From the IMG/VR virus record IMGVR_UViG_2636415833_000004: a stretch of DNA of 32,502 nucleotides; one strand, given 5' to 3'. The position numbers and the translations under genes are program-made. Below are positions 29,010 through 31,405 of this stretch, piece by piece; the first letter of the stretch is position 1, and the number at the start of each line of letters is the position of its first letter. Below the pieces are notes generated by a model. It searched no databases, was not told the DNA's origin, and saw nothing but the letters and a program-made list of their open reading frames with translations. The DNA comes from a virus. Lineage: Duplodnaviria; Heunggongvirae; Uroviricota; Caudoviricetes.

Positions 29010-29246
29010 TTATCTGCCAGTAATGGCAAGCTTTAGATCAGCGATCAGGCGGTCCAGTTGGTGGCGTCCGTCATCGTTCAGTGCGTCAATGCCGTAATCA
29101 AACGCGGCCAGAATTGCCATTTCCATTTCGCGGGATTCGATCGCGACGGGCAGTCGCTTACCCGGTTGCACATATACCGGCACGTCGTACCCTTCATAAA
29201 ACGGATCGACTTCCCGCGCCTTTTCTGTGTTAAGTGGATTAAACAT
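29010..29246 (-). CDS. hypothetical early protein
   Basis: Track start 29258 is TTG; ATG at 29246 with strong GAGAGG Shine-Dalgarno 4-5 nt upstream. Confidence 0.45.
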   Translation of the reverse strand: MFNPLNTEKAREVDPFYEGYDVPVYVQPGKRLPVAIESREMEMAILAAFDYGIDALNDDGRHQLDRLIADLKLAITGR

Positions 29247-29254
29247 TTTTCCTC

Positions 29255-29674
29255 TCAATTAAACGCTGTCGTTTTTGTCAGGCTGGCTTCGGCAGTCATA
29301 AAAGCTCTGGCATACCATGCAACCATATTGATTTGTCTTAGTTCGCGACGATTTGGATCGACACGCGGCACTAATGGCAGATAGCCGCGCTCAGCATCGC
29401 TTTGAACCTTACGCAAAGACTGTCCGAAGAATTCGGAAAATTCCTGCACTGTTAAAACCGGTTTAATGCCACTACTAAGGATATGTTTCAGTGCGCGGTC
29501 AATTGCCATTAGTTCACGTTCAGAACGACTATCAGGGGATCGCCGAGCGCGGCGCTGATGATTGCTTTGAGTCTGTTCGGGTAAAAACGCGCCTTGTGCC
29601 AGTTCAACGACCGGGTAGTAACCAGGATCAGCCTCCTGATGTGCGGGTAAAGCTCTGTTTTGCTCTGGTGTCAT
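29255..29674 (-). CDS. Cox/Apl-like HTH early regulator (putative excisionase/switch protein)
   Basis: First gene of early operon, divergent from C; ATG 29674 with AGGA upstream; C-terminal LTVQEFSEFFGQSLRKVQSDAERGYLPLV resembles P2 Cox (IPYQEFAKLIGKSTGAVRRMIDKGKLPVI); an internal ATG at 29509 would give a Cox-sized 84-aa product. Confidence 0.55.
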   Translation of the reverse strand: MTPEQNRALPAHQEADPGYYPVVELAQGAFLPEQTQSNHQRRARRSPDSRSERELMAIDRALKHILSSGIKPVLTVQEFSEFFGQSLRKVQSDAERGYLPLVPRVDPNRRELRQINMVAWYARAFMTAEASLTKTTAFN

Positions 29675-29771
29675 TTGATATCCTGTCTGTTTAGATTGGT
29701 TTCGCTTGTCTTCAAGTAGTCTAATTAGACTGCATGAAGGGAAATTTAATGTCTAATTGGACTACTGTCAA
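29675..29771. promoter_or_regulatory. immunity switch region: candidate early promoter with operator repeats
   Basis: Minus strand TTGACA (29771..29766), 17-bp spacer, TAAATT (29748..29743); 13-bp direct repeats GTCTAATTAGACT (29719..29731) and GTCTAATTGGACT (29751..29763), the first within a perfect 14-bp palindrome AGTCTAATTAGACT (29718..29731). Confidence 0.55.
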
Positions 29772-30032
29772 ATGAAACTTGGTGAAAAATTAAAAGCGAT
29801 TAGAGCAGCCGAAGGTCTTAGTCAGAATGAGTTTTGCGAATTTATTGACTTATCTATAAATACGCTTAGGAAATATGAAACGGGGGGGTATGAACCTGGT
29901 GGTAGTGCTTTGGTTAAAATCGCCCAACACCCGCGCTTTCAAAAATACACGCTATGGCTGATGTCTGACATCACCGCACCAGAAGCAGGTCAGATAGCAC
30001 CAGTTACCAAAGAAGAGAAAAAGACCGGTTAA
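29757..30032 (+). CDS. C: P2 C-type immunity repressor (HTH); likely true start ATG at 29772
   Basis: C-terminal HPRFQKYTLWLMSDITAPEAGQIAPV matches remembered P2 C (TPQFTKYTLWFMTNQIAPESGQIAPA); track start 29757 is TTG, ATG at 29772. Confidence 0.75.
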   Translation: MDYCQMKLGEKLKAIRAAEGLSQNEFCEFIDLSINTLRKYETGGYEPGGSALVKIAQHPRFQKYTLWLMSDITAPEAGQIAPVTKEEKKTG

Positions 30033-30074
30033 TCACCGCCCGCACTGCGGGCGAATAATACATAAGGAAAATGT

Positions 30075-30524
30075 ATGTCAAAAGATAATGATACATTTAT
30101 ACCCCCAATACGCCCACCTCGTAATTCCCGCTATGAAGAACCATCACCAGAACTTATGAAAAGGCTACAACAAGTTACCCCTGAATTATTCGCTGAATTT
30201 TTGATGTCAAAAAACGCCGCTCAGTTCTGCATATCATGTGGATTTACTAAATTAACAATGTCCGAAAACGGAGTTTATAACGGTGCAAAGACTCCCGAAA
30301 ACTATGACTCTTTATCGCAAATCGATCAGGAGAAATTCGCAGCTGATAATACTCTCTGGTATGTAACGCCCGTGTTTGTGAATACTCATACAAAAATAAG
30401 ATTAGCCGATGTCGAATATAAAATTAATTGCCCAAACTGCGGGCATATCAGCATTTATCGCGCCCGCCCGGTCGTCGCATGGATAGAAGAGAATCGCAAG
30501 GAATGCAAAAATGAGTCAGACTAA
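30075..30524 (+). CDS. hypothetical zinc-ribbon protein (two CxxC pairs)
   Basis: 149 aa, ATG with AAGGAAA SD; Cys52/Cys55 (CISC) and Cys119/Cys122 (CPNC); inserted between the two C-type repressor genes. Confidence 0.55.
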   Translation: MSKDNDTFIPPIRPPRNSRYEEPSPELMKRLQQVTPELFAEFLMSKNAAQFCISCGFTKLTMSENGVYNGAKTPENYDSLSQIDQEKFAADNTLWYVTPVFVNTHTKIRLADVEYKINCPNCGHISIYRARPVVAWIEENRKECKNESD

Positions 30525-30945
30525 GGATAATGTTCATCATATAAGAGAACGTCAGGTACCCATAAATAATGAGTCCACAAACAGTAGTGACGACGGAGGC
30601 AACGGCATGAACAGCCTAATAAAACGCGTTGAAAAACTGGAAGACAATACCGGTGTAATTGTTAAAGAACTTACCCATCTCAACGCGCGCGCTGATGACT
30701 TCGCCTCAAAGGGCGATCTGCGTGAACTCAAGGCGCAGATAACTGGGGATATGAAAGAACTCCGTGCGCAGATGACCGGAGATATGCGCGAGCTTAAGGC
30801 ACAGATTAGCGGCGAACTCAAAGAGTCCAGGTCCGCAACCAGGGAAGATCTTGCAAAGGGATTACATAAGCAAATGATATGGCTATGCTCTGCCCTTTTC
30901 GCTACAGCAGGAGTCATAATCGCTTTGGTAAAAGATCTGTTCTAA
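30511..30945 (+). CDS. hypothetical coiled-coil protein with 11-residue repeats and C-terminal transmembrane anchor
   Basis: 144 aa; repeats GDLRELKAQIT / GDMKELRAQMT / GDMRELKAQIS; hydrophobic C-terminal helix MIWLCSALFATAGVIIALV; overlaps upstream gene by 14 nt. Confidence 0.55.
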   Translation: MSQTKDNVHHIRERQVPINNESTNSSDDGGNGMNSLIKRVEKLEDNTGVIVKELTHLNARADDFASKGDLRELKAQITGDMKELRAQMTGDMRELKAQISGELKESRSATREDLAKGLHKQMIWLCSALFATAGVIIALVKDLF

Positions 30946-31126: not shown

Positions 31127-31405
31127 ATGTCCTTGCGTAACCGCTTATTCTTGATAATTAATGCTGAAAATCTCACTATCTGCGAATTCGCGATATTTTG
31201 TGATATTTCGAAGAAGACACTGTATCAATTCAGGCAGCAAATAATAATGACGCTGCCTGATATTGATTTATTGAAGATCACCCGAAACCCCAGATTCAAT
31301 AAATATACGTTATGGATGATGACAAATAAGACCGCAGCATCATCCGGGCAAATCGATCCGGCGCTTTTCCCTCTTCGCTCGCCAAAACAATCTATTAACC
31401 AATAA
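31127..31405 (+). CDS. second P2 C-type repressor paralog, immediately upstream of int
   Basis: ATG 31127 with GAGGTG SD (track start 31100 is an upstream ATG); NPRFNKYTLWMMTNKTAASSGQIDPA aligns with the first C-like protein and P2 C. Confidence 0.6.
   Translation: MSLRNRLFLIINAENLTICEFAIFCDISKKTLYQFRQQIIMTLPDIDLLKITRNPRFNKYTLWMMTNKTAASSGQIDPALFPLRSPKQSINQ

Follow-up and report, generated by a model that had tools for sequence, protein, structure and literature searches.

The divergent C and Cox-like genes and their promoters

The window analysed here, the whole 32,502-nucleotide stretch of IMG/VR record IMGVR_UViG_2636415833_000004, carries two divergent genes separated by a gap of 97 bp. 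The rightward gene (29772-30032, plus strand) encodes an 86-aa C immunity repressor, whose N-terminal HTH is followed by a conserved C-terminal segment. The protein matched Pfam HTH_3 (1.4e-9), phrog_147 (2.1e-28) and the P2 C structures 2L49/2XCJ (E 1.2e-13). The C-terminal segment contains a motif, F..YTLW.M..AP..GQI.P, that was invariant in the family alignment; in P2 C the conserved C-terminal segment carries dimerisation. Gene callers (in 5/5 places, L017-L021), the family alignment and a second copy of the gene elsewhere all agreed on the ATG at 29772 as the C start. An integrase gene lies downstream of C. The leftward gene (29674-29255, minus strand) is the first early gene and encodes a 139-aa Cox-like protein. 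Its residues 71-125 form a Cox-like domain, which matched phrog_575, 'Cox-like excisionase and repressor' (7.4e-9), and the protein gave no Pfam match, Phage_Cox included.

Three further ORFs separate C from int. The first two (30075-30945, plus strand) lie in the lysogenic operon and are candidate lysogenic-conversion or defence cargo: one encodes 149 aa, belongs to phrog_4293 and has below-threshold zinc-finger/zinc-ribbon Pfam matches, and the other encodes 144 aa, which by eye suggest coiled-coil repeats and a C-terminal hydrophobic stretch. The third, just upstream of int (31127-31405, plus strand), is a second C-like ORF. Its product matched phrog_147 (1.2e-15) and keeps the C-terminal YTLW...GQI motif; it had no Pfam HTH match, and its identity to phage C proteins in the phage collection did not exceed 44%. 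Enterobacter sp. MF024 has a 69% homologue within the same order of primary C, cargo ORF, C-like ORF and int. This second C-like ORF may be a relic or a modulator.

A first-pass annotation of the sequence had proposed an early promoter, here Pe, aimed at the Cox-like gene on the minus strand, and its coordinates were exact. A TTGACA -35 hexamer (29771..29766) abuts the C start codon and is followed by a 17-nt spacer and a TAAATT -10 hexamer (29748..29743), with a predicted start site at ∼29736. An alternative -10, TTAAAT (29749..29744, minus strand), would have a 16-nt spacer. Pe was the sole promoter-like match in 29200-30200, agreeing with the consensus at 10/12 positions, a yield that by itself was not above chance (1 match per kb vs 2.1 in shuffles). 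The assignment is nevertheless solid because of positional conservation rather than consensus match. In a family sample of 92 loci, representing 56 distinct upstream sequences, TTGAC(A) was found near the C start in 56/56 distinct upstream regions and no more than 1 nt from it in 46 of them. The family -10 follows the pattern TAnnnT, 16-18 nt from the -35, and the sequence between the promoter elements varies freely. The same layout is annotated in the P2 record AF063097, where the Pe -35 overlaps the C start in the same place as here and is followed by a 17-nt spacer; C sites are annotated there in the Pe spacer and just beyond the -10, with Pc ∼50 bp further and facing Pe.

One contig of the same immunity, IMGVR_UViG_3300011584_000016 (L111), carries an A>G change at 29743 that converts TAAATT into TAAATC. 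Either Pe is weakened or crippled in this contig, or the true -10 is the neighbouring TTAAAT with its 16-nt spacer.

Consensus searching of the plus strand for the lysogenic promoter Pc yielded no convincing promoter and nothing above 8/12. The best candidate (GTGTCA, 18 nt, TAGATT; 29668-29697, plus strand; 8/12 match) would start at ∼29704; its leader would be 68 nt long, and its transcript would overlap that of Pe by 33 nt. The position of this putative Pc matches that in P2, in which the Pc -10 follows the Pe -10 at a distance of ∼50 bp and transcription from the two promoters is convergent. The Pc of P2 is likewise weak (PMC1904263).

Paired palindromes within an exchangeable immunity cassette

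Two related dyads, O1 and O2, are found in the Pe region. O1 (AGTCTAATTAGACT, 29718-29731) is a perfect 14-bp dyad located 11 nt downstream of the -10, corresponding to about +5 to +18 of the Pe transcript. O2 (TGTCTAATTGGACT, 29750-29763) is an imperfect dyad inside the Pe spacer, which keeps 12/14 positions of the dyad. The first-pass annotation had pointed out a pair of 13-bp repeats, one in the spacer and the other past the -10 within a perfect 14-bp palindrome, and we confirmed their coordinates: GTCTAATTAGACT (29719-29731) and GTCTAATTGGACT (29751-29763) match at 12/13 positions and have starts 32 bp apart. O1 and O2 also mirror one another across 16 nt (29715-30 vs 29751-66, 94% complementary). 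AGTCTAATTAGACT is the only perfect 14-bp palindrome in the window, against a chance expectation of ∼2 for 32.5 kb. Significance lies not in the palindrome as such but in its pairing and its location. When up to two mismatches were allowed, the whole-window matches to GTCTAATTRGACT were O1 and O2 only, both within the 97-bp gap (4 strand-matches vs 0.8 expected). More widely, dyad-symmetric sites occupy the O1 position in roughly half of the 56 distinct family sequences.

O1 is itself surrounded by an extended 30-bp imperfect dyad (CTTCAAGTAGTCTAA/TTAGACTGCATGAAG, 29710-29739; 87% complementary), the outer arms of which read CTTCA...TGAAG; O2 is without such an extension. Longer dyads of 20-36 bp that contain O1 and start at about the predicted Pe +1 were also seen in L004, L022, L024, L030, L034, L039, L066 and WPhi (L108). 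The extended dyad could form a 5′ hairpin on the early mRNA or provide extended repressor contacts. A potential third operator at 29684, 34 bp to the left of O1, was discarded, its 4 mismatches being at chance level and its sequence being shared with heteroimmune alleles.

The first-pass annotation had equated the repeats with the P2 arrangement, in which C binds direct repeats flanking the Pe -10. We retain the repeats flanking the -10 as predicted operators because of their conserved position, the annotated layout of P2 and their co-variation with the C DNA-binding domain. The likeness to P2 does not extend to the sites themselves, which are 14-bp dyads 32 bp apart and not P2-like direct repeats.

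The co-variation emerged from an alignment of three alleles, those of the window, L001 and L024. The L001 allele is that of 7 complete E. coli genomes, whose prophage shows ∼98% identity to the window in either flank and diverges in between. The divergent segment defines an exchangeable immunity cassette (approximately 29716-29948) comprising O1, the Pe -10, O2 and C codons 1 to ∼59. Its boundaries are sharp, with flanks ∼98-100% identical between E. coli prophage alleles, and its right junction falls inside C, just before the conserved C-terminal motif. Among the three alleles, 26-28/28 of the last residues of C are identical, vs 14-40/58 residues in common in the N-terminal HTH part. Entirely different palindrome pairs occupy the same alignment columns: AGTCTAATTAGACT/TGTCTAATTGGACT in the window, GGGTACGTATTTGTACCC/GGGGCAAATTTGTACC in L001 and CTCCTATATAGGAG twice in L024. 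Identity between the Cox-like proteins is 95-98% overall and complete across the Cox-like domain. The palindromes thus track the HTH domain of C and not Cox, which is the expected signature of repressor operators. A cassette of ∼230 bp, made up of the operators and the C HTH domain, recombines between E. coli prophages that are otherwise near-identical.

The same alignment bears on the 70-aa N-terminal extension of the Cox-like protein, which is of doubtful constraint. Codons 1-46 differ among the three alleles by 9 nonsynonymous and 4 synonymous changes, vs 0 nonsynonymous and 10 synonymous changes in codons 56-139. This pattern could reflect weak constraint on the extension or a true start at Met56 (29509). 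As regards C, Pectobacterium C proteins having the same 'SINTL' recognition-helix residues are associated with different repeats, and specificity is therefore not readable from helix 3 alone.

Copies with the same immunity as the window are almost identical, with just two SNPs in the gap, the A>G at 29743 in L111 and an A>G at 29715 in L017. Identical or near-identical copies of the prophage adjoin mipA elsewhere (five places shown, L017-L021). Of the 64 collection blocks listing the protein, at least 24 include contigs that encode an identical C, with E. coli as the cluster label, and the same operator pair is also present on contig IMGVR_UViG_3300028969_000137, whose length (32,502 nt) equals that of the window. 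The immunity allele was found in 0/5,426 complete E. coli genomes, where the flanks alone match. Ten E. coli immunity classes have been mentioned (PMC3448106). We conclude that this is a new or uncharacterised immunity allele in a well-known kind of switch; for annotation, the value of the analysis is that Pe, two predicted operators and the C start are now fixed for it.

The operator region is also matched by CRISPR spacers. A 32-nt spacer in type I-E arrays of 5 complete E. coli genomes (e.g., STEC383; L003 1201-1233) matches the window exactly at 29740-29771 (plus strand). The protospacer spans the Pe -10, O2 and the -35, and is preceded by a canonical AAG PAM (29737-29739). This match suggests that the spacer-bearing E. 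coli hosts met the sequence on an invading element.

Tandem C-type repressor genes within one lysogenic operon were observed in E. coli prophages L024 (1501-2341) and L025 (1501-2048). In L024, C1 is preceded by palindromic operators of its own, C2 combines a separate SD with 98% identity to the C of the window, and C3 is the L001-allele C. In L025, at least C1 and C2 are present. These arrays look like several immunities stacked in one prophage.

Scanning of metagenomes for the operator pair retrieved mostly an unrelated system in AT-rich contigs and not P2-like phages. In ∼40 unrelated contigs of this kind (L112-L153; e.g., L121 7201-7245, L136 8325-8369, L151 7559-7603), the same palindrome, (A)GTCTAATTAGAC(T), is paired 32-33 bp apart, with its first copy between the hexamers of a consensus TTGACA/TATAAT promoter. 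In L128, L136 and L151 the pair is upstream of a gene of ∼285-291 aa whose N-terminus resembles SGNH-type esterases by eye. The metagenome pair appears to belong to an unrelated regulator whose operator and geometry coincide with those described here.

The mini-ORF upstream of C

A plus-strand mini-ORF (MSNWTTVK) runs from an ATG at 29749 to a TGA at 29773-29775, and its stop overlaps the C ATG at 29772 as ATGA. Its SD, GAAGGGA, lies 6 nt upstream and is stronger than that of C (-5.3 vs -3.0 kcal/mol), which ranks it among the top 10% for plus-strand ATGs (10th percentile -5.0, 5th -5.7). All of these elements, coordinates included, are present as first annotated. Counted from an in-frame ATG at 29734, the mini-ORF would comprise 13 codons (MKGNLMSNWTTVK).

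From these elements it had been proposed that a leader peptide couples C translation to its own. If so, the mini-ORF (29749-29775, or from 29734) would be a translated leader, and termination at ATGA would re-initiate or unmask translation of C. The strength of its SD and the overlap of its stop with the C start would fit such a role. A leader transcribed from a left-lying Pc would moreover fold into a 16-bp O1:O2 hairpin (-22.6 kcal/mol) ending 5 nt before the C ATG; as the mini-ORF begins at the 3′ margin of the hairpin loop, its translation would melt the 3′ arm. Against this, the hairpin is an automatic result of two palindromic operators. The stem also accounts for the one Rfam match, a sub-threshold miRNA-hairpin hit (22 bits vs a gathering score of 84). 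Among relatives, a uORF ending in ATGA was found in 10/55 distinct sequences, vs 5.4 ± 1.9 in shuffles, and Dickeya L026 likewise has a uORF of 13 codons. However, the 10 relatives fall into ∼7 related groups, which makes the excess weak, and neither the peptide nor its length nor its start is conserved, the starts of relatives ranging from -14 to -50 and their peptides being unrelated.

When the 60 nt upstream were dinucleotide-shuffled, 12% of the shuffles gave a uORF ending in ATGA, which is the expectation for the window's uORF by chance alone. The L001 allele has no uORF on the same backbone, nor do P2 and WPhi, and C2 of L024, close relative of the window's C, is preceded by its own AGGAGAGG SD and no uORF. 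In favour of translation, the A>G of L111 turns GGGAAAT into GGGAGAT upstream of the mini-ORF, a better SD by eye. A uORF with an SD and a stop overlapping the downstream start is thus found here, with no conservation in presence or position. With no conservation, absence from L001 and a 12% chance expectation, the proposed coupling was not borne out, and a translated leader seems quite improbable. Most probably, the mini-ORF arises incidentally: the margin of O2 supplies part of its ATG, and its stop exists because the second codon of C starts with A.

A more elaborate version would combine both elements: the O1:O2 hairpin of the Pc leader would hide the weak ribosome-binding region of C, and translation of the mini-ORF (8 or 13 codons), with its SD and start in the loop, would open the 3′ arm and hand ribosomes over at ATGA. 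We hold this to be very unlikely. If true, the DNA of the operator pair would double as an RNA translational gate on repressor synthesis. More generally, if coupling through the mini-ORF were real, a classic switch would gain a level of translational control, but the evidence for such coupling is thin.

The predicted switch and its relation to known systems

The locus is the transcriptional switch between lysis and lysogeny in an E. coli prophage of P2-like (Peduovirus) type. Its repressor is a homologue of P2 C, the position of Pe is kept family-wide, the two sites are unique in the window, and the sites co-vary with the HTH of C. From the sequence we infer the transcription start sites, the location of Pc, and the stoichiometry and cooperativity of C. 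In the proposed mechanism, Pe would fire leftward into the Cox-like gene and the early operon, and C would be read rightward from a weak promoter further left, so that the two transcripts would converge. C would shut off Pe through the two 14-bp dyads, that of O2 within the spacer and that of O1 spanning approximately +5 to +18. With centres 32 bp apart, equivalent to three helical turns, O1 and O2 would present the same face of the helix; each would be bound by one symmetric C dimer, and the cooperative pair would occlude RNA polymerase. As a whole, this P2-type reading, comprising Pe, C shutoff via two 14-bp dyads and a putative convergent Pc, is in our judgement highly probable.

Recognition of each dyad by a dimer was weighed against a P2-style recognition, in which the two 13-bp elements would be direct-repeat half-sites. 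The elements do also form a direct repeat matching at 12/13 positions. The C proteins of P2, P2 Hy dis and WPhi have all been described as direct-repeat binders (PMC1904268; PMC2995052), and the half-sites of WPhi (GTCACCAATA twice) are not palindromic. Against this reading, O1 forms a perfect 14-bp dyad and O2 retains 12/14 of its positions, and the sister alleles and about half of the family are dyad-symmetric as well. A symmetric dimer fits a dyad without special assumptions. The crystal structure of P2 C shows such a symmetric dimer, spanning two consecutive major grooves, and its authors remarked on the oddity of a symmetric dimer for a direct-repeat binder (PMC2995052). By analogy with that structure, a 14-bp dyad is most likely the natural target of a symmetric C dimer, and we regard half-site recognition at this locus as unlikely.

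Alternatively, the ligand of the palindromes might not be C but the Cox-like protein or a host factor, given that Cox/Apl proteins also bind the Pe-Pc region in P2-type switches (PMC3448106). Yet the palindromes differ among three alleles whose Cox-like proteins are near-identical and share an identical Cox-like domain, and they track the C HTH domain instead. The Cox sites of P2 are direct repeats one helix turn apart. Apl sites, too, have been described as direct repeats at that spacing (PMC7498355). Assignment of the palindromes to Cox or a host factor is accordingly extremely doubtful, and C remains the preferred ligand of O1 and O2.

Comparison with characterised switches placed the locus within the P2 type while setting its operators apart. 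The 186-type CI/Apl/CII switch resembles it in having convergent promoters and inverted-repeat operators (PMC1904263). In 186, however, CI has 196 aa and two domains, the operators include distal sites and an establishment promoter depends on CII, whereas C here has 86 aa and a single HTH. The 32.5-kb window contained no further operator copies, and a switch of this type was excluded on the basis of the 86-aa single-HTH C and the lack of distal operators. The R-M controller protein C.Esp1396I and lambdoid repressors such as P22 c2 are similar in another respect, being small HTH dimers that bind repeated palindromic sites cooperatively, with one dimer per site, and the fold similarity of P2 C to such regulators was pointed out by the authors of its structure (PMC2995052). 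Both differ in family and in biology, and C.Esp1396I has a centre-to-centre distance of 15 bp; we claim no membership.

P2 Hy dis has a repressor of the same C family and two repeated sites (PMC1904268), but these are 8 bp long, flank the -35 and lie 26 bp (2.5 turns) apart. WPhi (AY135739) comes closer, since its copies lie on either side of the -10, separated by about three helical turns (34 vs 32 bp), and its TTGACA abuts the C ATG. Its C is able to bind a single site alone (PMC1904263). WPhi nevertheless has a different repressor sequence, and its sites (GTCACCAATA) are 10-bp direct repeats with no internal symmetry. The class of L004/L-413C, with CCTATATAGG twice, 34 bp apart, is distinct from that of WPhi, as comparison with the WPhi sequence showed.

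P2 itself (AF063097) shares with the window a homologous C, the Pe -35 at the C start, the 17-nt spacer and sites in the spacer and past the -10, as well as a divergent Cox-like first early gene and int downstream of C. Its half-sites are 8 bp long and non-palindromic (ATCTAAAC), lie 22 bp apart flanking the -10, and the distal one begins 3 nt after the -10. In the window, 32 bp separate two 14-bp dyads, the distal of which follows the -10 after 11 nt. The window differs further in the length of its Cox-like protein (139 vs 91 aa), which has no Pfam Phage_Cox match, and in the two cargo ORFs and second C-like ORF between C and int. In spacing and placement the sites of the window are closer to those of WPhi than to those of P2, and their internal symmetry matches neither, as read from the sequences.

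Taken together, the locus has the small C homologue, the divergent Cox-like gene, the Pe -35 at the C start and the paired class-specific sites of a P2-type switch, with palindromic operators in place of non-palindromic direct repeats. On this evidence, non-palindromic direct repeats are a trait of P2, Hy dis and WPhi rather than family-wide, and the comparison suggests that the non-palindromic direct-repeat binding of P2 is a special case and not the rule of the C family.
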